From positions 18,527 to 50,526 of the forward strand of contig CAYZSS010000003.1 in NCBI GenBank assembly GCA_964480435.1: a stretch of 32,000 nt of DNA, in the 5' to 3' direction. Positions 16,187 through 32,000 of the stretch are shown in pieces (positions within the stretch are counted from its first letter, which is position 1; each line of letters opens with the position of its first letter). Origin of the DNA: an uncultured archaeon. GTDB taxonomy: Archaea; Iainarchaeota; Iainarchaeia; Iainarchaeales; 0-14-0-20-30-16. The translations under genes and the position numbers were made by a program. The notes under the pieces were generated by a model. It searched no databases, was not told the DNA's origin, and saw only the letters and a program-made list of their open reading frames with translations.

Positions 16187-16954
16187 ATGGATTTGGTGCT
16201 ACTAATTTCAATAGGTTTTACAATTTTTTTCTCTGCCTTGGCGGCTTATTTTGATTATAAAACTACTTATATTTTTGATTGGATAACATATCCAATGATA
16301 CTTGTTGGATTAATTCTTTTACCATTTAAATCAACTTGGTATATTGGGCTAATTTCTGCAGCAATTGTGTTTGTATTTTTTATTCCATTTTACAAATATG
16401 GTAAAATTGGTGGGGGGGACATAAAATATTTTTTGGGTCTTTGTTTGCTGATGCCGTATTATGGAAATATGTATTTCATATTGCCTGTTTTCTTTTTTGC
16501 TTCTGCCCTGGCGGGATTATTTTTTGGGATAAAATTTATTGTTTTGTTTTTATCAAAAAGGTATTATAATAACATAGGAAAAATGGAATTCATTTTGAAG
16601 CTTTTTCTTGCTCTTGCATTTTCAGTATTTGCAGGTATATTTTTGTCTTTTGGTTATAAGTTGTACATTGCAGTCTCCATTTCAATTTTGTTTTTTATTT
16701 GTATGTTTGTTTTACTTTTCCAAAATTATTTCTATATGCAATTTTCTTACAAAATTAAATTGGAAAATATTTTGGAAGATGATATTGTTGAACTTTCTTG
16801 TCTAAATAAAAAAGGTACTAAATTAGTTGATAAAAAATTGATTGCAGAACTAAAAAGTAAAAAAGTAAAAGAATTAATTGTTTATAGAAATCTACCTGTA
16901 TTCGCCCCATTTCTTTTTTTAGGCGTTATAATTTCTTTATTTGTTTTTTTATGA
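16187..16954 (+). CDS. Archaeal prepilin/preflagellin peptidase (A24 family, FlaK/PibD/EppA-like, GxGD aspartyl protease)
   Basis: 255 aa polytopic membrane protein. The first catalytic Asp context is AAYFDYKTTYIFD and the second is KIGGGDIKYFLG. A ~50-aa hydrophilic segment precedes the last TM. Confidence 0.8.
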   Translation: MDLVLLISIGFTIFFSALAAYFDYKTTYIFDWITYPMILVGLILLPFKSTWYIGLISAAIVFVFFIPFYKYGKIGGGDIKYFLGLCLLMPYYGNMYFILPVFFFASALAGLFFGIKFIVLFLSKRYYNNIGKMEFILKLFLALAFSVFAGIFLSFGYKLYIAVSISILFFICMFVLLFQNYFYMQFSYKIKLENILEDDIVELSCLNKKGTKLVDKKLIAELKSKKVKELIVYRNLPVFAPFLFLGVIISLFVFL

Positions 16955-18766
16955 TTTTTTATTAAAAAAACTTTCAATTAATTTTTCTGACATTTCTAAT
17001 CTTGGTTTTAAATCATCTGGAAGCAAAGCTTGATATTTTGACCAAGTATATCTTTGATCAATTAATACAATAAAACCTCTGTCTTCATTTGTTCTTATAC
17101 ACCTTCCTGTTGCCTGTATTACCTTGGAAAATGTGGGATAAGTATAAGCATAATTCCAACCATTTGCAAACTTTTCATCATAATACTTTATTGCTTCTTT
17201 TATTTCTAAGGTTGGCTCCGGGAATGGAATCCCCAAAATAAAAACACCTATTAACTGTTCTCCGGGAAAGTCTAGGCCCTCTGAAAATGAACCGCCTAAG
17301 ACTCCTAATAAAACAGAACCCAAACCTTTTGATTTTTTAAATTCATCAATCATTTTTTTTGATTTTTGTGTATTTTTATCCTGTAAGTAAACTTTTTTTG
17401 CTGTTTTTTCAGAAAGCAGGTTGTAGAATTCAGATGCCAGTCTGTGGGATGGCAAAAATATTGCAATATTTCCCATTGTGTTATTAATTACTTTTGCAAT
17501 TTTTTCAGTTACTTTTTCTAGATCCGCACTATTTCTTAGTTCGTATTTTGTGCTAAAAGAATCATCGTACATTACTAACTTGTTTTCTTTTGGAAATGGG
17601 TTTTTATAAGTAAATATTTTTGTATCTCTGGGGAGTCCCAAAATATCAGAATACATTTTTTGCGGGGTTAAAGTTCCAGACATTAATATCGCTGAATCTA
17701 CTTTTTTGAATATGTTTTTTGTGACTACAGCAGGGTCAAGATATTTTATAAAAATACTTAATTCTCCGTCCTCCCCACTTTTTATTATTCTTATTGTAGA
17801 TTTGTTTTCTTCAAACCAACTGGAAAAAAAAGTATAAATATATGGCAAGATTATGTTTTCGTTTTCGAAATTCTTTTCTAAAGTTTTTATGTGCTCTGGC
17901 TCTAAAGCAGGAAAATCTTTGTACCCGTTCTCAAAAATAGTTTTTAAAAAATCAGTATCTACCAGTAATTCGCGTTCACCCTTTTTTTCTTTTATAAGGA
18001 GAAGCAACTGTTTTAGTTTTTCTGCTAAATAAGAAAAATCCCCTTCTTCAATTTTTTCTAATTCTTTTATCCCTTCTGAAATTAATTTTTTATTTATGAA
18101 CTGGGATAAGTTTGATTTAATTCTTTCGCCAAGGTTGTGGGCTTCATCTATAATCAAAATTGCCTCTTCTAATTCTTTTTCAGACCTCAACATGAATGTT
18201 TGCATTACTTTTGGGCTAAAAAGATAGTTATAATCACAAATTACTAAATTTGCCCTTTTTGTTAATTCAATTGCAAGTTCATATGGGCAAACATTGTTTG
18301 ATATCCCAAAATCTAAAATTGTTTCCGCGCTGAGAACATTTTCTAAATGGATTTGTTTGTTGTAATTTTTATTTTTAAAATTTTTAAAAGCTTTACAAGT
18401 TCCGCTTTTTAACTTACTTTCACAAAATTCGTAAAATCCTTTTGAATTATTATAATTTGGTATCTCTGAGCACATTTTCTGCTTACCTAATATATTTACT
18501 GCTTTCAATTCTAAGCCGTATTTTTTGTTAATATCCTCAACAACTTCCAGTGCTAATTTGTGCTGCGTTGTTTTTGGAGTTAGATAAAAAACGGTTTTCT
18601 TTCCTGCTAGACTTAATGCTGATGATAAGACTGCGTCAGTTTTCCCTAAACCAGTGGGTGCTTCAAATAGCCCAATTTTTGATTCGTTTATTGTGCTACA
18701 AACATCTTTGATAAGAGAATCCTGTTCTTCTCGGTAAGATCCGTGTCTAAAATAAATTTTTGTCAT
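16949..18766 (-). CDS. xpd: XPD/Rad3-family (DinG-like) 5'-3' DNA helicase with an FeS-cluster Cys motif
   Basis: 605 aa. It carries FEAPTGLGKTDAVL (Walker A), IIDEAHNL (DEAH box) and four Cys in the FeS-domain position (KMCSE.. EFCES.. GTCKAF.. NVCPYE). The C-terminal helicase motif is ATGRCIRTNEDRG. Confidence 0.85.
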   Translation of the reverse strand: MTKIYFRHGSYREEQDSLIKDVCSTINESKIGLFEAPTGLGKTDAVLSSALSLAGKKTVFYLTPKTTQHKLALEVVEDINKKYGLELKAVNILGKQKMCSEIPNYNNSKGFYEFCESKLKSGTCKAFKNFKNKNYNKQIHLENVLSAETILDFGISNNVCPYELAIELTKRANLVICDYNYLFSPKVMQTFMLRSEKELEEAILIIDEAHNLGERIKSNLSQFINKKLISEGIKELEKIEEGDFSYLAEKLKQLLLLIKEKKGERELLVDTDFLKTIFENGYKDFPALEPEHIKTLEKNFENENIILPYIYTFFSSWFEENKSTIRIIKSGEDGELSIFIKYLDPAVVTKNIFKKVDSAILMSGTLTPQKMYSDILGLPRDTKIFTYKNPFPKENKLVMYDDSFSTKYELRNSADLEKVTEKIAKVINNTMGNIAIFLPSHRLASEFYNLLSEKTAKKVYLQDKNTQKSKKMIDEFKKSKGLGSVLLGVLGGSFSEGLDFPGEQLIGVFILGIPFPEPTLEIKEAIKYYDEKFANGWNYAYTYPTFSKVIQATGRCIRTNEDRGFIVLIDQRYTWSKYQALLPDDLKPRLEMSEKLIESFFNKKS

Positions 18767-18816
18767 GTGAAACCTATATAAATATACTCTTTTTATATAT
18801 ATTGTCTTGTTTTTGG

Positions 18817-19392
18817 ATGATAGATATGGTAATGGGTAATTTGGATCGTAGAGCTGTTAGGCAAATAAAAGCTCCAGAAAAACGAAAATATTCTTTTTTT
18901 ATTAGGACAATTGATAAAACGTCTTCACATAACTTGGGGCGTGTACAAAACGAATTATTATCAGCATATAAGACAGGAGAAATAAAAAAAACTGAATATC
19001 TCTCTCTTGTGAAGAAAATAAAATTAAAGGTCGAAGATTCTAAAACAACAAAAAAAGAAGAAGTAGCAGTTAAGAAAGAAGAAAAAACTAAAGATACAGG
19101 GCGTTATTTTGCAAATGTTTCAGCAGAAAAAAAGGTTTCTGAAGCTAAAGAAAGCGAAGCAAGACCTGTTGCGGAGTCTCCAAAAAAAGAGGGGCTCTTG
19201 TCTAGCTTATTGTCCAATGTTAACATGAGAACTGGTTTTTTTGTTATTGCCATGTTTGGTTTGTTGTTTATTGTAACCAAAGGCGTGTTATCATCAAAAG
19301 GAGACGGAGACTTGTTGATATTTGGAATTGTATTAGTAGGATTATTAGTAATAATTAGTTCATCAGGCTCAAAAAAAGAGGCTGATTTTTGA
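18817..19392 (+). CDS. Hypothetical Lys/Glu-rich protein anchored by a C-terminal two-helix hairpin
   Basis: The track ORF starts at 18760; I prefer ATG 18817, with TATA-like TTTTATATATATT at 18791-18803. The charged N-terminal ~140 aa are followed by FFVIAMFGLLFIVTKGVL and LLIFGIVLVGLLVIISS. Confidence 0.55.
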   Translation: MIDMVMGNLDRRAVRQIKAPEKRKYSFFIRTIDKTSSHNLGRVQNELLSAYKTGEIKKTEYLSLVKKIKLKVEDSKTTKKEEVAVKKEEKTKDTGRYFANVSAEKKVSEAKESEARPVAESPKKEGLLSSLLSNVNMRTGFFVIAMFGLLFIVTKGVLSSKGDGDLLIFGIVLVGLLVIISSSGSKKEADF

Positions 19393-19421
19393 TTCTTTGA
19401 CTTAAAGAATAAGGAAATAAA

Positions 19422-19529
19422 TAAAAAGGGTATTAGATATAAGTTATATGTAGGTGTTTTTTATGGCTGTTGTAAGGAGAAAACCAATTAGGGATAATGT
19501 TGCTGAACCGGTAAAAAGGGTATTAGATA
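19422..19529. repeat. 18-bp perfect direct repeat TAAAAAGGGTATTAGATA bracketing the start of the giant ORF
   Basis: The copies lie at 19422-19439 (upstream of the start codon) and 19512-19529 (inside the ORF, encoding VKRVLDK), offset by exactly 90 bp. Confidence 0.85.
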
Positions 19530-22500
19530 AAAACTCAGTCGTAAAGCCAAAGAGAACAATTGGTGAAGAACGTACAGGTTTTGCAAAGGTGCATAAGGTC
19601 CGTAAATTACCACCTGGAAGAGAAATTAAAAAAGTAAAACAGCTATTAGAAACAAGAAACACAATCAGTAGTTATCATGAAAGATTAGAGAGATTGCCTC
19701 TCCCTAAGTTAGGAGAAGAATTAGCAAAAATTATAAAAAAATTAAAAACTTTAAGAAGAGATCTAACAAGATTAAAACCAAAGGATAAACGAAGAACAGG
19801 CTTAGAAATTCAAATAAAGGGTTTAACCCAAACAGAGCAAATAATTAGGTCTTTGGCAGATAAAATTGTTGCTGATAAAACAGAAAGAATAGAACAAGAG
19901 AAACTTGCAAAAATTGGTAGGGATCTGAAAGCTCAAGAAGTAAAATTGAGCTCTAAAGAGAAAAGTTTAGAGGAAAAATTTACTAATTTTAGACTGGAAT
20001 ACAGATATGGTGTAAGTGTTAAAAATGCACAGATATTATTAGACATAGTAAGTAAAATTGAAGCCCTAATGGGATCTAAAGATTTAAAACAAATGTCTAC
20101 AGAGTATATAACAAAATTATCTGTTTTGAAAGATGAAATTGAACGTGAATTGTCTGGTTTAGAACCTGAAGAAGAAAGAAGAGAGCCTTCAGAGGGAAAA
20201 CAAATTACTTCCGCAGAAAGAGAAGCTTTGGTTTTAGAGAAAAGATATTCAAAAGCATCACTTGATAAAGTAGTAGAAATATTTATTTCTGCTTTGAAAG
20301 ACCCTAAAAAAAATATATTTATACTTGAAAAATTTGGACGTCTAATTGGAACAAGAGCAAATACTATATTTACTTTAATTATGACGAATAATAGGTTAAC
20401 TCCCGCAAATAAAAGAAAAGAATTAATTGTTTTAAGCTCTCAAGTAGAAGATGCAATATCTCGAATATCTTTTTCTAGTAAAGGGTCTCCTTATGCTGCA
20501 AATCCAGTTAATGTTTTAATGGCTCTTGTAGAGCCAATAAGAAGAGAAATTGCAAAAATAGAGCCTGAGCAACAAGGGCAAGCAGCAAAATTACAAGCTG
20601 TAGTTGCACGGGAAAGGGATTTGCAAGAAGGACACGAGTTAGAAGATAAAATTAAAGCTTTATTAGCTGGGTTAGGAAAGGAGCCAGCATTAATGAGACA
20701 AATTAGAGCGGAATATGCTCGTTTGTTAGGATCTGGACCAGGTAAGGGGCCAGCATATTTAAAATTAAAACTTAGAGAATTGCAAGAACAAAAACTGTTA
20801 CCTCCTGGAACTCCAAAAGATCAAAAGCTATTAAGGGCCCCAACTCCTGAAGAAGAGTTGATGGAGTTTGGTAGAAGAAAAGAGCTGGCGGAACGTGATA
20901 GAAGAAAAGAATTGGAGTTACAAGCTAGAAGAGACAAAAACACAAGAATAATATTAAATAGACTTAAAGAATTAACAGATGAAGTAAGGGATGTAAAAAA
21001 AACACTTTACCAGTTAGTGGGTTTGCAAAAAAACCTTGCGGATTTGATTAGAACAAGAGGCGGAAGTTTAGAAATAAATATTACTGAAATAAGAGTGCAG
21101 ATGCTTGGACTTAGTGTTAATGGCGGGTTGTCTAAAAGAGTGGGGGATATTTTAGCAAGAATCTTATCAGAAATTGAAAAAAACCACGGGGCAACAAAAG
21201 AAGACCTAAGGGTATTAACTGAAATTTCAAAAGGCCTTGACAGAAAAGCAGAAGAAAGTCTAGGAAGAATAAAAGGTCTTGAAACAACTGTTAAAGCTAT
21301 TGCTGAGGATATATCAAAGAATCGTGAAGAACTGTCTGAAATGGGCAGAGGTCTTAAAGAACAACTTGATGAAATAATGGCTGAAATAAGAAACACAAAA
21401 AAGGAACCTCCAGTAGTAGGGGATTTTGAAAAAATATCTAATAGATTAGATATTATTATTTCACAAGTGGGTGAAAATACAGACCTGATAACCAGCATGG
21501 CGGGATTACAGAAAAGCCTTGAAGATGTGATAAAATCAAATAAGTCTGATTTAAAGGATGTTAAAGAAGCCTTGGCAAATATGAAAACACTAATAAATGA
21601 CTCTGAAGATAGGTTGTCAGAAGAATTTACAAGTGCTATGCAAGTAATTTCTGGTCAAATAAATGGGCTTGTTGAAACATCTGAGGAAGGACATAGATTA
21701 ACAAGAGGACAACTTACCTTTCTTGCAACAGTAACAAGAGATCTTAAAAATAGAGTAAGTGAAGGTTTAGTTGCTATTGATAAACTAAAAGATGAAGTAA
21801 AAGGTATGTCTGGCTCTGTTAAGGCATTAGAATCAGCCTCAGGTGAAAGGCATAAAGATATAACTGCAAAAATGGATAGAATTATGCGGGATATTGAAGA
21901 TGCAAGAAATGACATAGGTACAGATGTAGGTAATATTGTTGATGCAAGATTACATGAAATAAAAGAGGGTATAAGAACTTTAAATGATCATTCTGCAAGA
22001 GTTTTAGATCGTCTTGGTATGCTTAATGGTACTTTCTTATCTTTGGAACATTTTGATAAAGTTGTTACTGAGTCAATGGGAGAATTACGTGAAGGAATTA
22101 CCGTTGGTTATGATCAAATTGTTTTAGAAATAAAAGAGGCAGCAGAGAAAGTTATTGCTGAAGTAGGAAAGAAAGATCCTGAATTTGTAAAGAATCTGGA
22201 AAATAAATTAACGTCTTTAGAAGAAATGTCTATGCAAAATAGAGAAGATATTTTGAAAGTGCTTTCTGATATGCACGACTCAAGCACAGAAAGATTAGAT
22301 AGAATAGAAACACAAGTAATGCAATCAAGAGAAGACATACTAACAGTATTATCTGATATTACAAAAGGAACAGAAGCGGATAGGGAAATAAAAGTCTTGG
22401 CTGAGAAAATAAAAGAAATAGTAGAAACAAGGGGTGCCAAGGATACTTCTGTAATAGATGCAATAGAAAAAATTGCAGAAAGATTGGAAAATATTGACAA

Positions 22501-23362
22501 TAAACTTGACGCAAATAATAAAGTAATTGCTGATATTTTAAGAAAAGTAATTCAAGAAGAACTTGGAGAAAGACTTGTAAGAATGGAAGGTAAACTTGAT
22601 GCTCTTACAGCCGAAGGAGCAAAAAAGAGAGACACAGATAAATTAAGTAACCAAATTGATGAATTAAAACAAATGATTGCTGAAATGGGTCGTCGTGGCC
22701 CTGGAGAAAATCCGCCTGGAGGAAATGGTTCTGGGCAAGGTGGCGCAGGCTGGACTTATGGCCCTGGCGGATGGGTAAATAACAATAATAATAACAATAA
22801 TATCTTTGGTGGTGCAGGCGGACCAAATGGACCTGGTGGCCAGGGAGATGGTGGAAGACCTCGAGGACCTGGAGAAGATGGTGGTTCAGATGGTGGAGAT
22901 GAAACACCGAGAGGGCCAAGAGGAGAGGGCGGCTCTGATGGGGGGGATGAAACACCAAAAGGACCAGGTGGTAAGGATGTGCCTGAACCAGGAAATGATG
23001 ATGCTGGAAAGAAAGCTGCAGAGGATGCAAAGAAAGCAAAAGAAGCAGCTGAAAAAGCAGCAAAAGATGCTGCAGCAGCAGGCTCAAAAGAAAAGGCATT
23101 TAGCAAAGTAGCTGGCTGGGGGTTCGGGCTTGCTATTCCTGGGGCTCTAATAATGGTTTTATTATTTGTGCTATCTAGAATCTTTGGAAAAGGAACAACC
23201 TCAACAATAAGTACTGTAAAAACAGCTACAGTGCCTATAATGCCTATTACTGGGTCTGCGGCAAGTGCTGGAGGCGGTTTATTACCTTCTGGGTTTATGA
23301 CCCCGTTAATAATAATCGTTGTTCTTATAGCATTATTTATGCTATTTCCAAAAAGTAAGTAA
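19463..23362 (+). CDS. Giant (~1300 aa) coiled-coil protein with a basic N-terminus, a Gly/Pro/Asn low-complexity module and a C-terminal two-TM hairpin anchor
   Basis: The track ORF starts at GTG 19454; ATG 19463 has AGGTG 8 nt upstream. There is no N-terminal signal peptide. More than 1100 aa are heptad-like and rich in E, K, L and I. The tail carries WGFGLAIPGALIMVLLFVLSRIF and FMTPLIIIVVLIALFMLFP. It is the longest ORF in the window in AT-rich DNA. Confidence 0.8.
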   Translation: MAVVRRKPIRDNVAEPVKRVLDKNSVVKPKRTIGEERTGFAKVHKVRKLPPGREIKKVKQLLETRNTISSYHERLERLPLPKLGEELAKIIKKLKTLRRDLTRLKPKDKRRTGLEIQIKGLTQTEQIIRSLADKIVADKTERIEQEKLAKIGRDLKAQEVKLSSKEKSLEEKFTNFRLEYRYGVSVKNAQILLDIVSKIEALMGSKDLKQMSTEYITKLSVLKDEIERELSGLEPEEERREPSEGKQITSAEREALVLEKRYSKASLDKVVEIFISALKDPKKNIFILEKFGRLIGTRANTIFTLIMTNNRLTPANKRKELIVLSSQVEDAISRISFSSKGSPYAANPVNVLMALVEPIRREIAKIEPEQQGQAAKLQAVVARERDLQEGHELEDKIKALLAGLGKEPALMRQIRAEYARLLGSGPGKGPAYLKLKLRELQEQKLLPPGTPKDQKLLRAPTPEEELMEFGRRKELAERDRRKELELQARRDKNTRIILNRLKELTDEVRDVKKTLYQLVGLQKNLADLIRTRGGSLEINITEIRVQMLGLSVNGGLSKRVGDILARILSEIEKNHGATKEDLRVLTEISKGLDRKAEESLGRIKGLETTVKAIAEDISKNREELSEMGRGLKEQLDEIMAEIRNTKKEPPVVGDFEKISNRLDIIISQVGENTDLITSMAGLQKSLEDVIKSNKSDLKDVKEALANMKTLINDSEDRLSEEFTSAMQVISGQINGLVETSEEGHRLTRGQLTFLATVTRDLKNRVSEGLVAIDKLKDEVKGMSGSVKALESASGERHKDITAKMDRIMRDIEDARNDIGTDVGNIVDARLHEIKEGIRTLNDHSARVLDRLGMLNGTFLSLEHFDKVVTESMGELREGITVGYDQIVLEIKEAAEKVIAEVGKKDPEFVKNLENKLTSLEEMSMQNREDILKVLSDMHDSSTERLDRIETQVMQSREDILTVLSDITKGTEADREIKVLAEKIKEIVETRGAKDTSVIDAIEKIAERLENIDNKLDANNKVIADILRKVIQEELGERLVRMEGKLDALTAEGAKKRDTDKLSNQIDELKQMIAEMGRRGPGENPPGGNGSGQGGAGWTYGPGGWVNNNNNNNNIFGGAGGPNGPGGQGDGGRPRGPGEDGGSDGGDETPRGPRGEGGSDGGDETPKGPGGKDVPEPGNDDAGKKAAEDAKKAKEAAEKAAKDAAAAGSKEKAFSKVAGWGFGLAIPGALIMVLLFVLSRIFGKGTTSTISTVKTATVPIMPITGSAASAGGGLLPSGFMTPLIIIVVLIALFMLFPKSK
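22871..22969 (+). repeat. In-frame tandem repeat (51 + 48 nt) encoding GE(D/G)GGSDGGDETP(R/K)GP twice
   Basis: GGAGAAGATGGTGGTTCAGATGGTGGAGATGAAACACCGAGAGGGCCAAGA is followed by GGAGAGGGCGGCTCTGATGGGGGGGATGAAACACCAAAAGGACCAGGT. An (AAT/AAC)8 poly-Asn run lies at 22778-22801. Confidence 0.85.
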
Positions 23363-23394: not shown

Positions 23395-23721
23395 TTAATT
23401 CTTTTTATAGTTTAGAATTGTTGAATTACCACAATAACTACAAATTATTTTTTTTTGTACTAAGTCTTTTCCATTTTTTTTGATACTCTTTATTCTTATT
23501 TTAGGAGGTTCTAGCCTGAATACTGAAAAACAGTTTTTGCAAAATATTTCTTTTTGCTCTTTTTTAAGCCTAATATTATACCTTAAGCAAATAGCACGTA
23601 TTAGTCTTGCGCAGTTTTTTGAAAAAAGAGGGTCCTTAGTATTATTCAATTGTGCGAACAGATATAGGATTCGTTCTTCTGCCACCTTTTTGTATTCTGA
23701 TTTGGTTCCTTTTGACCCCAT
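23395..23721 (-). CDS. rnp4: RNase P protein component 4 (Rpp21/Rpr2/Rnp4)
   Basis: 108 aa. The helical N-terminus is AEERILYLFAQL ... LIRAICLRYNIRL. The zinc ribbon is CKNCFSVF ... CSYCGN. Confidence 0.8.
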   Translation of the reverse strand: MGSKGTKSEYKKVAEERILYLFAQLNNTKDPLFSKNCARLIRAICLRYNIRLKKEQKEIFCKNCFSVFRLEPPKIRIKSIKKNGKDLVQKKIICSYCGNSTILNYKKN

Positions 23722-23776: not shown

Positions 23777-24976
23777 ATGAATTTTAAGTTATTATTTGTG
23801 TTATTTTTGTTAGTTTTGCCCCTTTCGTTTTCTAGCCTTATTGGGCAATCGTATCTTCTTTCTGATATGAATTCTTTTAAGGGAGATATAGAAAATAACT
23901 ATTCTTGTAGTACATTTTCTCTCTCTGAAACTGATTTTGCTGCTTTAAAAAATAGTGAAGGGATACTAGCATTAGACCTGTATTTTAAGTTTACCCCTGA
24001 AATAAGTAGTAATTCTTATCTACAAATATATGTTAATGGGGATTTAATTAAATTTAAGACAAAAGTAGGATTAAAATCAGATAAATATGTTATTTTTGAA
24101 GATTTCCAGAGCGGTAGGGATGTAATCTTTTTAGAAGATTATAGAGATCAGAATAAACTAGATCTAAATATTTGTGGTTATGTTTCTGGCTCAGTATATG
24201 AATTAGAAATGCTAAATAACTCTTCTGTAGGGTCTTTTAAAATGCCCTATTTTTCTTGTAAAGGCTGCTTTTCTAAATCCCTGGATAATGATCAATTTTT
24301 AGTTGATGACATAGTTAAAACAAATCTATTTTTACTTAATAAGGGGTTTGACTCTGTGAATACCTATGTAAAATATAATTTTTTTGATGTAAACACAGAA
24401 ACAAAAATGCTTGGGGGAGAAGTATTTTTTAATGGCCTTATTGAAGCTAATAAAGATAAAACAATAACTTACTATTTTAAGTCAAAAACAGATAAATATT
24501 TTCTAATTCCTCCTGCAAGTTTAGAATATTTTTATGATGGTTTTAAGTTCCGAGAACTTTCAAACCCTATAGTGGCAAATGCAAAAAACTATTTGGATGA
24601 TATTGATTGTGAATTAGCCTCAGATAAAATAGAATATGTTGCAAAAGATGATGTGAAAATAACCGTAAGTTGTTATAATAAATCTGCAGAAAGTAAGGTA
24701 TTTAATTTAGCAGTTAAGATAAATGATACTAACCTTATTAATTCAGATGTAGTAATAGATAGCAAAAAACTGGCTGAATTTACTGCGTCTTATAGTTTTG
24801 AAGATTTTGAGAAAAAATCAGCATGCGGGCAAATTTCTTTTAACGATGAAATAAAGGACTTGGGGTGCTATAATTTTTATTTCTCTGAGAGTAGCAGTAA
24901 CTATACGTACTACCTAGTTGGATTTATATTTTTAATAATTGTAGGGATATTTATTTATTATTGGCTTTTCCTATAA
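23777..24976 (+). CDS. Secreted surface protein with an N-terminal signal peptide and a C-terminal TM anchor
   Basis: 399 aa. The signal is MNFKLLFVLFLLVLPLSFSS, the body is beta-rich and Cys-containing, and the C-terminus is YYLVGFIFLIIVGIFIYYWLF. I cannot assign a family. Confidence 0.6.
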   Translation: MNFKLLFVLFLLVLPLSFSSLIGQSYLLSDMNSFKGDIENNYSCSTFSLSETDFAALKNSEGILALDLYFKFTPEISSNSYLQIYVNGDLIKFKTKVGLKSDKYVIFEDFQSGRDVIFLEDYRDQNKLDLNICGYVSGSVYELEMLNNSSVGSFKMPYFSCKGCFSKSLDNDQFLVDDIVKTNLFLLNKGFDSVNTYVKYNFFDVNTETKMLGGEVFFNGLIEANKDKTITYYFKSKTDKYFLIPPASLEYFYDGFKFRELSNPIVANAKNYLDDIDCELASDKIEYVAKDDVKITVSCYNKSAESKVFNLAVKINDTNLINSDVVIDSKKLAEFTASYSFEDFEKKSACGQISFNDEIKDLGCYNFYFSESSSNYTYYLVGFIFLIIVGIFIYYWLFL

Positions 24977-25400
24977 TTCTTATTATTTTTTTTATGTTTT
25001 CTTTGATATTTTCTGATACTTCAATTGTGTAAACTGTTTTGTAAAATTTATTCAATTTCTTCTCAAAATAATTGATTTCCTTGCAAAATAAATTTTCTTC
25101 AATTTTTTCAGGAGAATATTTTCTTTTTTTATAAAGCAGTCTTAATTCTTTTTCTTGCCTTGTTAATAAAAAAATAAAGTCGGATTTAATTTTATATTCG
25201 CAAAATATGTGCCCTTCTAAAATCCAGCTATCTTTATTGTTTAATTCTTTTTCAGTTTTTTTCTTTAATGAACTGATATCCACTTCTTTTGCTTTGGTGA
25301 AGCTTTTTACAGTATATAAAGGACTTTTTAATATTTTTTCAAGTTCTTTTGCGATAGTTGTCTTTCCAGTTCCTGGCAATCCAGTAATGATTATTTGCAT
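24951..25400 (-). CDS. Small P-loop NTPase, adenylate kinase / Fap7-like
   Basis: 149 aa beginning MQIIITGLPGTGKTTIAKELEKIL. It overlaps the convergent neighbour by 26 nt. The exact kinase subfamily is unresolved. Confidence 0.6.
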   Translation of the reverse strand: MQIIITGLPGTGKTTIAKELEKILKSPLYTVKSFTKAKEVDISSLKKKTEKELNNKDSWILEGHIFCEYKIKSDFIFLLTRQEKELRLLYKKRKYSPEKIEENLFCKEINYFEKKLNKFYKTVYTIEVSENIKENIKKIIRIIGKANNK

Positions 25401-25461: not shown

Positions 25462-26277
25462 ATGCTTGAAAAAATTCTCGCGCAGGACATTCCTCTTTTT
25501 GAACTTGAGCAAAAGTTTTGGAAACAAATAAGTGAATTAGAAGATAAAATTAGAAGAACAAATAATGTTTCAAAAAAGGAAAAATATGGGAAAGAAATAC
25601 TCGTCCTTAGGGAAAAAATCAAAGCTCTTCAGCAAAATAATCCTGCTAAACTAAGATTCGAATTAAACACTCTTAGAGAGGCGCTTAAAGATAATGAAGA
25701 AGAAAATAAAAATTATTGGATACAGAATAAACTTCTCAAGGCTATTATTAATAGATATTTAAAAAACGAAAGTATTGGTTTAGAGGACTTGAAAAAACTT
25801 ATTTTACCAAATGATTTAAGTGTTTTGAGTATAAAGCAAGAAATAATTCCTGAAAATTATGTTTATGATGAGGACTATCTTGATGCTATAAAAAAACTAT
25901 ACTCTTATATAAAAAAAAATTATTCTATAATTGATTTATCATTACCTAATAAATACTGGTTGCCGCCACGAGACACTATTGAAGCGCAGGCAGGTGATGT
26001 ATTTGATATATCTGTGCTCATCTGTTCAGTACTTATTTCTTTAGGTGGGGATGATGCAAAAGTGTATGTTGTAGAACTAAATGATTTCTCAAGGCACGCC
26101 TTTGTAGTAACCAGATATAAAAAAAGAATATTGATTTTAGATCTAAAACAATCAGAAAATTATAACGATTATTTAGGTTATGAAAAAGATGTGTGGGCGG
26201 AATATTTGCCAAAAAGGCAAAGTATAAGAAAGAAAAAATATTCTTTTAATGACGTAAGTTTTGATTATCTTGAATAA
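25462..26277 (+). CDS. Cytoplasmic coiled-coil protein with a possible Cys-less transglutaminase-like fold; first gene of the plus-strand pilin operon
   Basis: 271 aa with no signal peptide. The C-terminal segment AQAGDVFDISVLICSVLISLGGDDAKVYVV...RHAFVV...RILILDL resembles the G-x-C...H...D transglutaminase-core spacing, but Val occupies the Cys position. The fold assignment is low confidence. The gene overlaps the next ORF. Confidence 0.45.
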   Translation: MLEKILAQDIPLFELEQKFWKQISELEDKIRRTNNVSKKEKYGKEILVLREKIKALQQNNPAKLRFELNTLREALKDNEEENKNYWIQNKLLKAIINRYLKNESIGLEDLKKLILPNDLSVLSIKQEIIPENYVYDEDYLDAIKKLYSYIKKNYSIIDLSLPNKYWLPPRDTIEAQAGDVFDISVLICSVLISLGGDDAKVYVVELNDFSRHAFVVTRYKKRILILDLKQSENYNDYLGYEKDVWAEYLPKRQSIRKKKYSFNDVSFDYLE

Positions 26278-26713
26278 AGGTTTTTTTATACTGTATTTTG
26301 TAGTAATCATTTTTTCTCTGCTTCTTGCCTTATTTTTTGTGTATTCGAATAATGATTATAAAGAAAAAGAATTAATTGAGGAATTCACAATATATTCAAA
26401 TAGTATTACTGATCAAACAGTTCTTGAAAATAACATATCTTATTTTATTAGAAAAAATATAGAAACTGAATTATACATTACCCAGGATAGAGGAGCAATA
26501 AAACTTGCTTTGGATCCTATAATAAAAAATTATCTTGTTTCTAATGGTTTTGATATTTCTTTACTTGCTACTGATTTATTTATTGAAATAATCCCTTTGG
26601 ATGATGTACTTCAGGTTAATTACCAGTATGTTTTTATCACAACCACAAAAAACACGGGGAAAAAAGTAATAATTTCTTCGGGGGCTATTTATGGGGGGTC
26701 CATTATTGTTTGA
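26261..26713 (+). CDS. Pilin-like protein, non-canonical class III signal (NKG/FFILYF)
   Basis: 150 aa. TTG starts are possible at 26261 or 26270 (the latter gives MNKGFFILYFVVIIFSLLLALFFV). It has a short basic leader ending K-G followed by a hydrophobic helix. The NKGFF matches the start of the 27629 gene. Confidence 0.55.
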   Translation: MIILNKGFFILYFVVIIFSLLLALFFVYSNNDYKEKELIEEFTIYSNSITDQTVLENNISYFIRKNIETELYITQDRGAIKLALDPIIKNYLVSNGFDISLLATDLFIEIIPLDDVLQVNYQYVFITTTKNTGKKVIISSGAIYGGSIIV

Positions 26714-26960
26714 CAAGCAAAAAGGGCAAATCTTTATTGAATTTTTGATTTCTTTTCTGATTATTTTATTTCTCTTTGGTTTTATTATTTCTTGTTTTAA
26801 TTATGACAAAATAGACTCAAAAATAAAATTAATAAACGAAAAAGTAAAGACTAAATATTGCCAACTTGAAAATAGCTTAAAGTATAATTATTTTGAAATA
26901 AGTTCAGATTGTGGTTTGTTTTTAAAAGAGGATGTATATGCAGAAAAAAAATATGGCTAA
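26691..26960 (+). CDS. Type IV pilin-like protein with a canonical archaeal class III signal peptide (DUF361-type)
   Basis: 89 aa. The N-terminus MGGPLLFDKQKGQIFIEFLISFLIILFLFGFII carries the KG/Q..IEF motif followed by a hydrophobic helix. Confidence 0.75.
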   Translation: MGGPLLFDKQKGQIFIEFLISFLIILFLFGFIISCFNYDKIDSKIKLINEKVKTKYCQLENSLKYNYFEISSDCGLFLKEDVYAEKKYG

Positions 26961-27636
26961 GAAAGCAATTTCAAGAAACCATTTCGCAAAGAAACTACTT
27001 TTGTGTAAAACAAAAGTATTTCAGTGGCTGAAGCATTTTGCAACTGCAAAATGTCTTCTTCCTAAAAAGCAAAATGTTTCAGGGGCTAACAAAGCTTTTT
27101 TGTGCAAAACAAAAAAGTTTGAGGGTCAGAAAAACTTTTCCAAGAAGTCAATTTTGTCTTTACACAAAATTGCTTCAGGGACTAAACCAATTTGCCTTTG
27201 CAAATTAGTTTTTTCTTTCGAAAAGTTACTTCTTACTAAAGAAATTTCTGTTTTTACAGAAATTTGCTTTTTCTCAAAGAACTTGTTTCAGAGCCACAAA
27301 TCTAAAGATAATGTGGCTAAGGGCTCATTTTCTTTGAGCCTCTTATTTACTATGTTATTTTTTTTGCTGTTCACATACCTGTTTTTTTTGGGTTTAAGTA
27401 ATATGCAAATAAAAATGGACAATTCCTTGGTCGCTCTTTACTATTCAGAAATTTCAGTCACAAAAAATAATGAAAAAGGAGTTGGCTTTGCGGAAATTAA
27501 TATTTTAGAACGCAGAGTAATGGCCAATAAAATTAAAGACGAAATTGTTATTACTGGCCTGCTCGCTGGTTACTCAATACCAAGGTTAATTTATGATGAT
27601 GGGATAAAAATAAAAGAGGCTGTTTTTAATGGCTAA
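26953..27636 (+). CDS. Pilin-like protein whose class III motif (AKG/SFSLSLLFTMLFFLLF) is preceded by a ~124-aa Lys/Cys-rich extension
   Basis: The track ORF is 26932-27636. ATG 26953 overlaps the previous gene's stop (ATGGCTAA). An internal GTG at 27313 would give a conventional 107-aa pilin starting MAKGSFSLS. The upstream 120 codons are stop-free in this frame only. Confidence 0.55.
   Translation: MAKKAISRNHFAKKLLLCKTKVFQWLKHFATAKCLLPKKQNVSGANKAFLCKTKKFEGQKNFSKKSILSLHKIASGTKPICLCKLVFSFEKLLLTKEISVFTEICFFSKNLFQSHKSKDNVAKGSFSLSLLFTMLFFLLFTYLFFLGLSNMQIKMDNSLVALYYSEISVTKNNEKGVGFAEINILERRVMANKIKDEIVITGLLAGYSIPRLIYDDGIKIKEAVFNG
26996..27265. repeat. Array of six short palindromes/hairpins inside the pilin leader region
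   Basis: 26996-27018 is TACTTTTGT-GTAAA-ACAAAAGTA. 27034-27053 is CATTTTGCA-AC-TGCAAAATG. 27095-27117 is CTTTTTTGT-GCAAA-ACAAAAAAG. 27149-27172 is CAATTTTGT-CTTTAC-ACAAAATTG. 27189-27206 is AATTTGC-CTTT-GCAAATT. 27242-27265 is AAATTTCTG-TTTTTA-CAGAAATTT. Confidence 0.85.
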
Positions 27637-27973
27637 TAAAGGTTTTTTTTGGCTTGCTGAAGTGGGTATTGGATTTATTTTTTTATTACTCTTTGGGGTT
27701 TTGTTTTTTAATTATTTAGACTCTGATAATGGTGGGCAAGTTTTTGCGTTACAAAAAGCAAATGATGTGCTCAGGGCAAATTCTTATTCTCATGAAGAAA
27801 TTTCGAAAGATGTTTTGGATCAATTTTTTGGTGATTTTGGCTATATTTGTTGTGTAGATCTGATGTGTTATTCAAATGATATAATTCAGAAAAATAAGTT
27901 GGTGAAAACCGCAAAAATCTTGTTTAAAAATCTAACTGAAAAAGAAGTATCACTTACTGTTTTCTATAATTAA
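27629..27973 (+). CDS. Pilin-like protein, non-canonical class III signal (MANKG/FFWLAEVGIGFIFLLLF)
   Basis: 114 aa. The start overlaps the preceding gene's end. It has a short basic leader ending K-G followed by a hydrophobic helix. The 3' end overlaps the convergent pilin gene by 24 nt. Confidence 0.6.
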   Translation: MANKGFFWLAEVGIGFIFLLLFGVLFFNYLDSDNGGQVFALQKANDVLRANSYSHEEISKDVLDQFFGDFGYICCVDLMCYSNDIIQKNKLVKTAKILFKNLTEKEVSLTVFYN

Positions 27974-28369
27974 TTCTATTGTTTTATTTTTTGTTAATTT
28001 TACTGAATATTTTCCTGGATCAAAATTATTGCTTTCATCTATGCAAGTATTACTGGAATAAGTTTTATTTGTGTTCTTTGATGACCAAGAGATATTATTT
28101 CCGTCAGCAGAAAAATTCCAAAAATTATTTAGATTTAAATTTGTATAAATTATACTTCCTTCTCCTAAATAGCAAATTTGATTTATTTCTTTTGTAAAGT
28201 TTTTTATGTTTGCTAAATCGAAAGATATTGTTGTGTAATTATACACTTTTATGAGTATTGGGATGAAAAGTGAAATAATTGCAATAATGATAAGTAGAAT
28301 AATCAAAAATTCAATACTCAATTGGCCGCTATTTTTTTTAATTGGTGTCCCCAATTTTGTCAATGTCAT
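27950..28369 (-). CDS. Type IV pilin-like protein with a canonical class III signal peptide
   Basis: 139 aa. The N-terminus MTLTKLGTPIKKNSGQLSIEFLIILLIIIAIISLFIPILI carries the G/QLSIEF motif. Confidence 0.75.
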   Translation of the reverse strand: MTLTKLGTPIKKNSGQLSIEFLIILLIIIAIISLFIPILIKVYNYTTISFDLANIKNFTKEINQICYLGEGSIIYTNLNLNNFWNFSADGNNISWSSKNTNKTYSSNTCIDESNNFDPGKYSVKLTKNKTIELIIENSK

Positions 28370-28535
28370 TAAAAATGTCCTCGGTTTTTGAGTCTATTTT
28401 TTCTGATGCCTTGTTTGTTGTTTTTGTTAACTGGGTTATTACTATTGCAGCAATTGCAATTAAAGCAGCCAAAATTATTATTAACTCCGCTGAAAGTTGT
28501 GCTTTTTTATCTATAATGAACTTTATCATCAGCAT
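28338..28535 (-). CDS. Very small type IV pilin (65-aa precursor), candidate major pilin
   Basis: MLMIKFIIDKKAQLSAELIIILAALIAIAAIVITQL... has a KA/QLSAE class III motif. A TATA-like ATTTATAC lies ~20-26 nt upstream of the ATG on the minus strand (plus coordinates ~28553-28560), suggesting a leaderless or short-leader mRNA. It overlaps the next pilin gene by 32 nt. Confidence 0.7.
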   Translation of the reverse strand: MLMIKFIIDKKAQLSAELIIILAALIAIAAIVITQLTKTTNKASEKIDSKTEDIFNDIDKIGDTN

Positions 28536-29789: not shown

Positions 29790-29820
29790 ATAAAAGTATT
29801 CTCCATATATATATAGTATT

Positions 29821-32000
29821 ATGAAAATTCCATCTACTGTGGGGTCATTTGAATATCGCCCTAAGAGTGCGAATCTAAAAATTTATTCCGTAGTAATGCT
29901 ATTTTTTGCATTTTTCCTTATAGTTTCCCTTAATTTTGCCACAATTCCTAATAATATTCCTGATAATAAGTTGCCTAGTTATGCAGTAAGTTCTGCAAAA
30001 GTAAAAAATGCGGATTTTATCCCACTTGATTATTTTAATGATAAAGCACCAAAAGAATTTAACTTTGATTTTTCTGGTGAGTATTACTTGTTCTTTTCTT
30101 CCAATTGGAAAAATTTAGCACAATCACAAACAGGGATAAAATTGAGCCACAGTTCTAGGGCTGGAAAGAGAGCTTATATTCCTTATGTTTCTTCTGGTTC
30201 CTTTGTTTTAGAAAATATGAAACTAAACAGTTTTGGAACAATTTATGCTGTAGAACTTATTCCAAATGCGGTAAGCCCAGCAAACACAAATATTTCTTTT
30301 AAAGTAAACGATGATACTTATGATGACATCGCATTTTTAGGAAACACTAATGATTTGGAATTAAAAGTAACTTTGTCCACATCTGCGTCTTATTATACTC
30401 CTATTTTAAAGGATTTAACAGTAAAATTATATCCAATAAAAAGTATCCAAATTAACCCTATCGTTTTACAAACTTCGGAAGACTTTATTTCAGTGAATTT
30501 AAAAAATTATATTACTTATTATGATTTTGCATCTGAAAATTTAACTTATTCTCTTGTAGGTAATACTCTTCCTTGTAATGTAAATCACTCGGCTTTAACT
30601 TGTAATGACTTGTCTGAAGGTACTTATTATTTGAATTTAAATGTAAGAGATAAAATAACAAACGCAGAATCTTATGCCCCAATTGAAATTATAATTAATA
30701 GTGATTCTCCTTATTTTTTAGATTTACCTATAATTGAAGCAGATGAGGATTCTCTTGTAGGCCCATTAAACTTGGAACCGTATATTTCAGATCCAAATAA
30801 TAGTGCTGATGAATTAACAGTGAGTATAATGTCTGTAAGCTCTTCTAATGGTATTAATTGTTCCCTGAACGGTTTTGAATTAAATTGTAGTGCAAATAAA
30901 GATTACTTTGGTAATTCTTCAGTAACTCTTAAAGTAATTGATCCTCAAGGAAACTTTTCCTTAGCTGATTTACAAATAAAAATAGCCAGCGTAAATGATC
31001 CTCCTACCTGGAAGGAAATTTCAGGATATAATTTAGAGGCTGGTCAAACACTGAATATTAACCTAGGAAATTTTGCATCTGATGTGGATAATTCTAATTT
31101 AGCTTACGAAATAAAAAGTAGTAATTCTTTAAGTTGTAATTTAAATAATTCTATAATTTCTTGTAATCCTACAATAACTCCACTTTCAACAAGCTTGGTA
31201 GTTTCCGTTTCAGATGGTGAATTTGAAGTAGAAAAAACAATTCCTGTTTCATGGAGTGTTTCTAATTTGGGCCCTGTATTTACTGGGGAAATTATGGGGA
31301 AAACAGTTGTTGGCAGTAACCCTTTAAATTTCTCTGCAAACCTAAGTTCTTATTTTTCAGATCCTGAAAATACTCCCTTAACTTATACTATTGAATATGT
31401 TTCAGGCAGCAATACTGTATGTGAAATCTCTTTAGATTTGCTAAATTGTGCTGCACAGGGAAATGGATTCACAGATGTAAAAATAAAAGCCAGCGACGGG
31501 GAGAAAGAAGTTTATTCTAATATTTTTAGATTAGCAAAAGTTAATTCAAATGATTTAACTGCTACAGTAAGTGTTCCTCACACAGTGCCTTTGAATTATA
31601 CTGTTTATTTCCAAGTTTATGTAACAAATAACTTAGGATTTTATTTAGAAGGTATTGAAGTAACTGCAAGTTCAGATTCTTTAACTATCTTTGATGGTGC
31701 TCCTGAAGGTCACAATAGCATCACAGAAGTAATTCCAAAAATTGATCCTAATTCAACAAAGACTTCAGAATTTCATGCAACAGTAGCAAATATAGAGAAA
31801 ACTCACTCGGTTTCCTTGGCCTTAACTGGCTCTATTTTAGATTCTAAAGAGATAGAAACAAAGAATATGTTTTATGCTGCTGGTAACGGCTTAGTAACCA
31901 TGTGGCAAGACAAAGGAGACAATGATGGTGCAGGATATTGGGGTACAGGGATGCAAGATATGGTGCCTAAAGATAACAAACTAAAAATCCGAGTTCACAT
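29821..32000 (+). CDS. Partial large surface adhesin-like protein with four cadherin-like/Ig-like tandem repeats (continues past the window end)
   Basis: My own translation from ATG 29821 is open to 32000 (726 codons), so it is absent from the track. It has an N-terminal signal anchor, IYSVVMLFFAFFLIVSLNF. Four ~90-aa repeats (nt ~30433-31536) each carry an L-(T/A)-Y ... C-x(6-8)-C pair. One inter-repeat boundary carries ASVNDPPTW. Confidence 0.75.
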   Translation, partial: MKIPSTVGSFEYRPKSANLKIYSVVMLFFAFFLIVSLNFATIPNNIPDNKLPSYAVSSAKVKNADFIPLDYFNDKAPKEFNFDFSGEYYLFFSSNWKNLAQSQTGIKLSHSSRAGKRAYIPYVSSGSFVLENMKLNSFGTIYAVELIPNAVSPANTNISFKVNDDTYDDIAFLGNTNDLELKVTLSTSASYYTPILKDLTVKLYPIKSIQINPIVLQTSEDFISVNLKNYITYYDFASENLTYSLVGNTLPCNVNHSALTCNDLSEGTYYLNLNVRDKITNAESYAPIEIIINSDSPYFLDLPIIEADEDSLVGPLNLEPYISDPNNSADELTVSIMSVSSSNGINCSLNGFELNCSANKDYFGNSSVTLKVIDPQGNFSLADLQIKIASVNDPPTWKEISGYNLEAGQTLNINLGNFASDVDNSNLAYEIKSSNSLSCNLNNSIISCNPTITPLSTSLVVSVSDGEFEVEKTIPVSWSVSNLGPVFTGEIMGKTVVGSNPLNFSANLSSYFSDPENTPLTYTIEYVSGSNTVCEISLDLLNCAAQGNGFTDVKIKASDGEKEVYSNIFRLAKVNSNDLTATVSVPHTVPLNYTVYFQVYVTNNLGFYLEGIEVTASSDSLTIFDGAPEGHNSITEVIPKIDPNSTKTSEFHATVANIEKTHSVSLALTGSILDSKEIETKNMFYAAGNGLVTMWQDKGDNDGAGYWGTGMQDMVPKDNKLKIRVH

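Follow-up and report, generated by a model that had tools for sequence, protein, structure and literature searches.

Adjacent genes for a small and a giant protein, each with a predicted C-terminal membrane hairpin, in an uncultured archaeon of the Iainarchaeota

The genes described here lie in a 32,000-nucleotide stretch of DNA from an uncultured archaeon of the Iainarchaeota (contig CAYZSS010000003.1; hereafter the window, in whose own numbering coordinates are given). An initial annotation had pointed to two adjacent open reading frames (ORFs) on the plus strand, one encoding a small and the other a giant protein. Both ORFs exist and all the peptide strings quoted from them are present. The two proteins end in a pair of hydrophobic helices, and the giant one carries in addition a long helical rod. 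The searches reported below suggest that the pair is a new orphan family, of an architecture unusual for a prokaryote and known from three uncultured lineages. The features of the pair are listed here (TM, transmembrane helix; aa, amino acids; pI, isoelectric point).

18767..18825: intergenic region between the divergent XPD and small genes; a pair of TATA-like boxes; ATG 18826 is preceded by a GGTG-like Shine-Dalgarno sequence
18826..19392, plus strand: small gene, 188 aa
19231..19365, plus strand: predicted hairpin of the small protein; TM1 TGFFVIAMFGLLFIVTKGVL, loop SSKGDG(D), TM2 LLIFGIVLVGLLVIISS (Kyte-Doolittle)
19393..19462: spacer separating the two genes; A/T box (GAAATAAATAAAAAG), conserved; GGTG 7 nucleotides 5' of ATG 19463
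19463..23362, plus strand: giant gene, 1299 aa, 3.9 kb
19463..19852, plus strand: basic head, residues 1-130; net charge +22, pI 11.1
Giant residues ~74-180: helices with coiled-coil periodicity
Giant residues 225-260: variable acidic spacer containing Pro
20210..20782, plus strand: central helical domain without heptad periodicity, residues ~250-440
20783..20857, plus strand: conserved Pro-rich hinge KLLPPG...QKLLRAPTPE, residues 441-465
20900..22687, plus strand: helical rod, residues 480-1075; hydrophobic period ~3.59
20951..21913, plus strand: ~160-aa part of the rod that is duplicated internally (residues 497-648 and 658-817)
22232..22360, plus strand: 29-aa-spaced repeat, MQNREDILKVLSDM / MQSREDILTVLSDI
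22688..22996, plus strand: Gly/Pro/Asn low-complexity linker, residues 1076-1178; GPGG[YWQ]-type motifs
Giant residues 1179-1212: Lys/Ala/Glu-rich stretch
23114..23185, plus strand: giant TM1 GWGFGLAIPGALIMVLLFVLSRIF, residues 1218-1241; invariant G-x-G-x-G..IP.A face
23186..23293, plus strand: inter-helix loop of ~36 aa, Ser/Thr/Pro/Gly-rich, residues 1242-1277; single charged residue
23294..23350, plus strand: giant TM2 FMTPLIIIVVLIALFMLFP, residues 1278-1296; then K-S-K and the stop codon
23363..23388, plus strand: terminator-like hairpin and T-run directly 3' of the giant's stop, AAGGGTTTTTTCCCTT then ATCTTTTTTT

Alignment with homologues placed the start of the small gene at ATG 18826 (MV.G) rather than at 18817, the in-frame starts considered for this ORF, which ends at 19392, being 18760, 18817 and 18826. 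The giant likewise starts at ATG 19463 (MA..) and not at GTG 19454; its length is 1299 aa, where the initial annotation had 1300. A protein of the NCBI collection, P0003, is identical to it. When the DNA was aligned with the homologous loci L031 and L032, the region 18767..18825 showed 78% mean column identity, its core CATATATAAATATA..TTTTTATATATA and its two TATA-like boxes being nearly invariant, and the spacer between the two genes showed 71%. The pair is genuine and conserved, and looks expressed: both genes are preceded by Shine-Dalgarno sequences and promoter-like boxes that the lineages share, and downstream of the giant's stop there is a hairpin and then a T-run. The divergent region shared with XPD exceeds both coding sequences of the pair in between-lineage conservation. 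In one database entry (P0005, 221 aa, a JGI gene call on a 919-nucleotide contig) the TGA of the small gene (19390-19392) is read as Trp and the ORF runs on to the contig end. This is probably an artefact of code-4 gene calling on low-GC DNA: the G+C content of the window is ~30%, and TGA serves as the stop codon in four of the 18 confident genes checked.

From its N-terminus onwards the small protein comprises a basic helical part (net charge +12 over 120 aa), a spacer of disordered sequence, the stretch LLSNxNMR, which is conserved and juxtamembrane, the two-helix hairpin and a short SSGSKKE tail. Its single-sequence AlphaFold 2 (AF2) model is helical, with predicted local distance difference test (pLDDT) scores of 86-95 at model residues 21-70 (191-aa numbering). 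A Kyte-Doolittle scan (19-residue window, threshold > 1.6) identified residues 139-158 and 165-183, in the same numbering, as the only hydrophobic segments. The hairpin is the most conserved part, with at least 30 invariant positions across the orthologues. A SHOCT-like motif (ELLSAYKTGEIKKTEYLSLVKKI) was discarded: isolated segments of the three orthologues gave no Pfam match even at E = 10. Small basic proteins of ~145-155 aa with a C-terminal two-helix hairpin are also found at two XPD loci of Woesearchaeota (L007 4368-4832 and L010 4804-5235, both on the minus strand); they are related to each other, and a profile of the window's small protein matches neither.

The giant opens with the basic head that had already been recognised in its first ~120 aa. 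Beyond residue 130 the protein has a pI of 5.6, and this split between a basic head and an acidic rod is found in both homologues, hence in all three lineages. Residues 14-41 of the head carry the conserved motif KR.LD..S[IV]VKP...IG.ER.G[FY]A. An AF2 model of the homologue P0006, based on a three-sequence alignment, is all-alpha and ends in two terminal helices; its head equivalent (the first ~76 residues) and its linker are predicted to be disordered, and pLDDT reaches 74-88 at residues 265-470, the equivalent of the central domain. In the hinge that follows this domain, K444, L446, P447, P448, K455, L457, P460, P462 and E463 are invariant. The giant has no Cys.

The initial annotation credited the giant with more than 1000 aa of heptad-like sequence. 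This was an overestimate: the heptad-type signal is limited to residues 77-182 and 487-1079 (a rod of ~600 aa plus ~100 aa), with none at 183-486. By a simple heptad score, 30% of the sliding windows along the giant lie above the 95th percentile of shuffles. A fine Fourier scan gave a sharp peak at a period of 3.58-3.59, not 3.5, in all three orthologues (power 4.2-6.3, and 4.2 in the window's giant, against a shuffle maximum of 2.0). The autocorrelation of the rod peaks at lags 7, 11, 18 and 25; this indicates heptads mixed with hendecads, and a coiled coil that is therefore nearly straight. In P0006 and P0007, the two homologues, the hydrophobic phase stays within ~+/-60-85 degrees across ~380-390 residues; in the window's giant it is broken into three blocks by shifts around residues 530 and 630. 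The halves of the internal duplication share 23% identity (pairwise BLAST, E 4e-6). The homologues are gapped across most of the duplicated stretch, so the duplication is specific to the window's lineage, and this old event accounts for the extra rod length of the window's giant. An alpha-helix rises by ~0.15 nm per residue; applied to the rod, this would make it ~57 nm long in the homologues when extended; that of the window's giant could reach ~88 nm. The 29-aa-spaced repeat noticed earlier was borne out, with a score of 53 against a maximum of 42 among 20 shuffles.

The Gly/Pro linker reported ahead of the anchor is also present. In it a stretch of 16 aa occurs twice in tandem (DGGSDGGDETPRGP / EGGSDGGDETPKGP), Asn residues form a run, and the overall length varies among the homologues. 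The Asn run, at 22775-22798, counts N8 in the window against N4 in L001, a 99.9%-identical strain; this 12-bp AAT/AAC indel is the sole protein-level difference between the two giants and looks like a slippage-type length polymorphism. The Kyte-Doolittle scan found no window above 1.6 before residue 1215 and only two hydrophobic segments in the giant, ~1222-1245 and 1281-1300 (1302-aa numbering). The loop between them is nearly invariant (STVK.ATVP.MP.TGSAA ... LPSG) and is predicted to lie outside the cell. According to the initial annotation, the two proteins share the same hairpin of closely spaced helices. Close spacing holds for the small protein, with a loop of ~8 aa, and fails for the giant, with one of ~36 aa. 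Neither BLAST nor hhalign (probability 0.4%) detected any relationship between the proteins, a result that also rules out the small one as a truncated paralogue of the giant. The hairpins thus appear to be alike in architecture, without detectable homology.

With giant residues 1-1087 as the query, a full phmmer search of 1.84 billion representatives found three clusters and no more at E <=0.001: the giant itself, P0006, which has 1124 aa and is 37% identical, and P0007, which has 1170 aa and is 34% identical. A metagenome scan added solely a truncated near-copy of P0007. When the giant, the small protein or a trimmed alignment of the conserved module served as the query of a word-indexed search, the matches listed held the window's own proteins or nothing, probably because low-complexity words took up the candidates; these searches missed the orthologues later found by phmmer. 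No relative was found in the viral contigs searched, and neither gene had a relative, by ORF features and hidden Markov model (HMM) search, at 29 other DPANN/archaeal XPD loci from GTDB genomes. Orthologues of the small protein, of 195 and 201 aa, are encoded in L031 and L032. The genes assigned around the pair in the window are as follows.

16187-16954, plus strand: prepilin peptidase (Peptidase_A24, Pfam)
16949-18766, minus strand: XPD/Rad3 helicase
23395-23721, minus strand: RNase P subunit Rpr2
24951-25400, minus strand: Fap7-like kinase

L031 and L032 share with the window the order XPD (minus), small gene (plus), giant gene (plus), Rpr2 (minus), a gene for a ~400-aa protein with a signal peptide (plus), the kinase (minus) and the genes downstream; the downstream order is also kept in L034. 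The small and giant genes are adjacent in all three lineages in which the region is visible. Loss of synteny was one of the outcomes that, according to the initial annotation, would refute its proposal; the others checked, kinship with SMC/Rad50-like ATPases and with S-layer proteins, did not refute it either (see below). Between lineages, the neighbouring genes are 53-78% identical, the small protein 37-43% and the giant 36-40%, so that no other genes of the locus evolve as fast as the pair. Divergence is concentrated in the cytoplasmic parts, which are 20-40% identical. Averaged over 50-aa bins of the giant, pairwise identity is 44% at residues 1-50, 53% at 851-900 and 68% at 1001-1050, the last two being the best-conserved blocks of the rod, and much of the remaining sequence lies at 16-31%. 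The highest value of all, 74%, is that of residues 1251-1299. In both proteins the hairpin is the best-conserved part, on all helix faces. This contrast between near-invariant anchors, together with the giant's predicted outside loop, and fast-evolving cytoplasmic parts is a notable one; it suggests that the hairpins take part in a specific membrane-embedded assembly, perhaps of both proteins together, rather than serving as passive anchors.

The statement that the family could not be named has held up. Neither the whole proteins nor isolated segments reached a curated cut-off in Pfam or NCBIfam. Searches of the PDB by phmmer and with profiles returned only coiled-coil noise (E >=0.007), and those of PHROGs only weak matches to uncharacterised families. 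Foldseek with models of the small protein and of P0006 found nothing below E 0.1 in the PDB, the matches being generic helical-bundle, BAR-domain and de novo design noise. Against BFVD, the P0006 model drew generic tape-measure-like helices, with one unnamed match at E 9e-4, the rest at E >=0.015, and TM-scores <=0.12. Similarity to ZorA in PADLOC was found to be compositional (see below).

No signal peptide or Tat-like h-region was detected in either protein, and the Kyte-Doolittle scan found no N-terminal hydrophobic segment in either, in keeping with the initial annotation, which had seen no N-terminal signal peptide in either ORF. Glu, Lys, Arg, Asp and Gln make up 0.36 of the giant, and the density of N-glycosylation sequons is 0.004, against 0.015 in a neighbouring secreted protein. 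The giant surface proteins encoded beside XPD in other Woesearchaeota carry signal peptides, and their charged residues amount to 0.17-0.19. These results support the cytoplasmic placement of the bulk of the protein proposed earlier. Because there is no signal peptide, the ~1200-residue charged N-terminal part should remain in the cytoplasm; because TM2 ends three residues before the stop, some part of the insertion, if not all of it, would have to follow translation, as it does in tail-anchored proteins.

We postulate that the last ~80 residues of the giant insert as an N-in/C-in helical hairpin, which would expose the conserved ~36-aa loop outside and leave the remainder of the protein in the cytoplasm. 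The flexible, silk-like GPGG linker would serve as a joint, and the rod, presumably oligomeric and extended, as a stalk or spacer that keeps the basic head tens of nanometres away from the membrane assembly. The head may bind a polyanionic partner such as nucleic acid, ribosomes or acidic lipid, and the hairpin of the giant may form a membrane complex with that of the small protein. Thus, at a confidence just short of even, we favour a lineage-restricted module, anchored by hairpins and facing the cytoplasm, in which the giant acts as a stalk or tether and the small protein as its membrane partner. If this is correct, a membrane-anchored cytoplasmic rod would span a sizeable fraction of a probably tiny cell, at the cost of 3.9 kb of a probably reduced genome, and would constitute a previously unnoticed element of archaeal cell organisation. 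The change in rod length by module duplication suggests a spacer or ruler function. The occurrence in only three uncultured lineages limits both the general importance and the experimental tractability of the system. The roles put forward initially (membrane skeleton, nucleoid or ribosome tether, scaffold at a host-contact site) are not told apart by these findings.

Several points weigh against the module as postulated. The three lineages are close and the whole neighbourhood is syntenic, which makes adjacency weak evidence of a functional link. The charge of the loop, +2 to +3, renders the positive-inside rule weakly decisive near the helices, and the near-invariance of this loop is a hint that what matters most may take place on the outer side of the membrane. 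Family searches recognised no ligand-binding domain in the head. Finally, the AF2 model of P0006 has a mean pLDDT of 53 and splits the rod into helices of 15-55 residues; given this low confidence and these short helices, a folded-back bundle is a possible arrangement in place of an extended rod.

Other explanations were weighed against the hairpin-anchored module. The pair could be a cytoplasmic accessory scaffold of a nearby type IV pilus-like or cell-surface apparatus, that is, a local representative of the coiled-coil proteins (CCPs) of DPANN archaea at a host-contact site. FlaX, a membrane-anchored coiled-coil scaffold of the crenarchaeal archaellum, offers a comparison. The prepilin peptidase at 16187-16954 and several genes at ~26.2-28.5 kb with class III (archaeal pilin) signal peptides are consistent with such a role, and so is the report of Hamm et al. 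(2024; PMC11291902) that the type IV pilus loci of DPANN, Woesearchaeota among them, encode CCPs. P0007 also matched FlaC_arch at 21.6 bits, but this is below the cut-off of 27.8 and falls within the coiled-coil region. Against the scaffold, no CpaF-type ATPase or TadC-type platform (T2SSE/T2SSF) was found among the ORFs scanned in the 32 kb; XPD, Rpr2 and the kinase are interleaved with the pair; the phmmer search of 1.84 billion representatives tied the giant to no other DPANN protein; and the reovirus sigma-1 fibre, to which CCPs have been likened, was not returned by Foldseek. We consider this explanation unlikely, if a serious one.

Somewhat more doubtful still is a bolder version of our own proposal, namely that the pair does in a prokaryote what trans-membrane tethers such as golgins or the LINC complex do in eukaryotes. 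A hairpin-anchored rod of 60-90 nm would then position the nucleoid or ribosomes relative to a membrane site, possibly one of host contact, the invariant loop would link that site mechanically with an external partner, and the small protein would be a second subunit of the membrane complex. If so, the length of the rod could be changed by module duplication.

It is distinctly improbable that the giant works outside the cell, as a fibre or adhesin that leaves by some unrecognised export route and is kept on the surface by its hairpin or by an archaeosortase-like arrangement of PSGF, helix and basic tail. The pair evolves fastest in the locus, as is typical of surface proteins, the linker is polymorphic in length, and a likeness to the attachment fibres of viruses has been noted for the CCPs of DPANN (PMC11291902). 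The three orthologues, however, lack any Sec, Tat or class III signal peptide and any N-terminal hydrophobic stretch, and their N-termini are equally polar, which also discards an S-layer protein or secreted surface giant; S-layer features are absent, and clear homology to S-layer proteins had been named in the initial annotation as grounds for abandoning its proposal. The high content of Glu, Lys, Arg, Asp and Gln and the low sequon density set the giant apart from genuine secreted neighbours. Its terminal LPSGF-helix-PK.K presumably bears no more than a superficial likeness to tripartite signals of the PGF-CTERM type: the last 50 and 100 residues matched no sorting-signal family (PGF-CTERM and relatives) in NCBIfam at E up to 10, and the second helix upstream of this "signal" makes N-in/C-in the simple topology.

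A component of a mobile element or defence system, either a Zorya ZorA-like motor with its tail or a phage tape-measure protein, is largely refuted. PADLOC models of the ZorA tail did match all three orthologues at E 1e-7 to 1e-4 (best 9.5e-8), and NCBIfam ZorA_3 gave E 0.048. Reversed orthologue sequences, however, matched the ZorA model group equally well (E 1e-6 to 4e-3, best 1.1e-6 and 5.5e-6), and the similarity is therefore one of composition and not of homology. The order is also opposite to that of ZorA, with the tail before membrane helices that lie at the C-terminus instead of forming an N-terminal multi-helix domain; no ZorB/MotB-like partner accompanies the giant, the small protein has no PADLOC match, and the membrane helices hold no conserved acidic residue. 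Tape-measure proteins dominate the Foldseek list from BFVD, but TM-scores do not exceed 0.12, with root-mean-square deviations of 30-70 A. Pfam TMP_3 gave 12.9 bits against a cut-off of 41, and no tape-measure family of PHROGs fell below 0.01. The context is housekeeping, chromosomal and conserved, without phage genes: in place of tail genes, the neighbours are XPD, Rpr2, SRP54 and tRNA synthetases.

An SMC/Rad50-like or other DNA-repair coiled-coil protein acting with the adjacent XPD, as the divergent transcription from a conserved shared promoter region and the basic head might suggest, is hardly credible, given that no Walker A motif (GxxxxGK[ST]) is present in the three orthologues, that the archaea-specific SMC-related model NF045487 gives 17.4 bits against a cut-off of 300, that Pfam recognises no hinge domain and the absence of Cys makes a CxxC zinc hook impossible, that the membrane anchor is the most conserved part, and that none of the 29 other DPANN XPD loci has a relative of either gene.

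The rest of the window contains archaeal housekeeping genes (eIF1A, eIF2-beta, SRP54, arginyl-tRNA synthetase, a class II tRNA synthetase of the D/K/N type and an FKBP-type protein). Among GTDB species representatives, the nearest relatives of the window's XPD are in metagenome-assembled genomes of Woesearchaeota and other DPANN, at <=37% identity, which marks the organism as a DPANN-type archaeon of a clade that did not turn up in this set. In several Woesearchaeota (L002, L003, L005, L009, L012 and L014) the gene that adjoins XPD on its downstream side codes for 1600-3100 aa, of which a low fraction is charged; four of these six giant ORFs begin with a hydrophobic, signal-like segment. They are of a different, surface kind and lie at the far end of XPD, whereas the pair described here lies beside its start. 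The plus-strand gene at 23777-24976, conserved beside the pair, encodes a 399-aa protein that is 58% identical in the two sister lineages and has no Pfam or NCBIfam match; a signal peptide stands at its N-terminus and a transmembrane helix at its C-terminus. To regard this surface protein as a candidate outside partner of the giant's invariant loop is pure speculation. A cluster of small genes on both strands at 26261-28535 encodes proteins with archaeal class III (type IV pilin-like) signal peptides, for example MLMIKFIIDKKAQLSAELIIIL, ..KKNSGQLSIEFLIIL and ..DKQKGQIFIEFLISF; the Peptidase_A24 prepilin peptidase lies 9 kb upstream of it, and neither CpaF nor TadC turned up in the window. At 29809-32000, on the plus strand, an ORF of at least 730 aa runs off the window; with an N-terminal hydrophobic anchor and repeated Asn/Ser/Thr-rich, beta-rich-looking modules, it probably encodes a giant surface protein. 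A full-length bacterial-type MutS of 821 aa, with strong matches to all of domains I-V, is encoded at 699-3164 on the minus strand. The distribution of MutS1 in archaea is patchy, so its presence in a DPANN-type genome is of note.

Membrane-anchored coiled-coil scaffolds of the cytoplasm are represented by bacterial EzrA and by mammalian p180/RRBP1 and kinectin, all with single N-terminal anchors. None of them is known to be related in sequence to the giant. Of these, p180 joins a basic ribosome-binding region to an acidic coiled coil, a charge split like that of the giant. Coiled-coil domains of more than ~400 residues are rare in prokaryotes, SMC and its relatives being the sole long family clearly conserved across all kingdoms (PMC1322226). 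In the genome-reduced Mycoplasma, the two-TM family MG_279/MG_280 (TIGR04527) gave a weak match of 19 bits, against a cut-off of 125, that lies within the rod and not in the anchor; the giant is not a member. Zorya ZorA resembles the giant in combining a membrane part with a very long cytoplasmic helical tail of similar composition, whence the weak HMM matches, but has the opposite domain order and relies on a MotA-like multi-helix domain and on ZorB, neither of which is found in the pair.

DPANN cells are characteristically small and their genomes typically reduced (PMC11291902). The CCPs of these archaea, Woesearchaeota included, are, like the giant, DPANN-specific coiled-coil proteins of uncharacterised function encoded near pilin-like genes (PMC11291902). 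Those described by Hamm et al. (2024) belong to type IV pilus loci, are expressed in Ca. Nanohaloarchaeum antarcticus, and have been likened to the viral fibre sigma-1 of reovirus and to nucleoporin fragments (PMC11291902). CpaF and TadC are shown in each of two CCP loci (PMC11291902), such loci being recognised by these two genes and by pilin genes within ten genes. The window has pilin-like genes and a prepilin peptidase, and among the ORFs scanned in its 32 kb neither CpaF nor TadC was seen; the phmmer search, which retrieved this clade only, gave no sequence link to the CCPs.

In layout the giant belongs with tail-anchored long coiled-coil tethers, an architectural class and not a homology family: there is no signal peptide, the rod is long, and the membrane segments lie in the last ~100 residues, the giant departing from the usual form by a two-helix hairpin in place of a single helix. 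Golgins (giantin, golgin-84) and plant PICC/PICL (PMC3581476) likewise have a long cytoplasmic rod with an anchor at the extreme C-terminus, no signal peptide and a distant head. They differ by their single transmembrane helix and their place in eukaryotic endomembranes, where the giant has a hairpin and a conserved loop predicted to be outside, and no relationship in sequence or fold connects them. The KASH-domain nesprins of LINC complexes are built from spectrin repeats, with an actin-binding head, one transmembrane helix and a luminal peptide that binds SUN, and no SUN-like partner is known for the giant. By analogy, they too are giant cytoplasmic helical rods whose anchor and short exoplasmic peptide are the most conserved parts, a pattern that would suggest coupling across the membrane.

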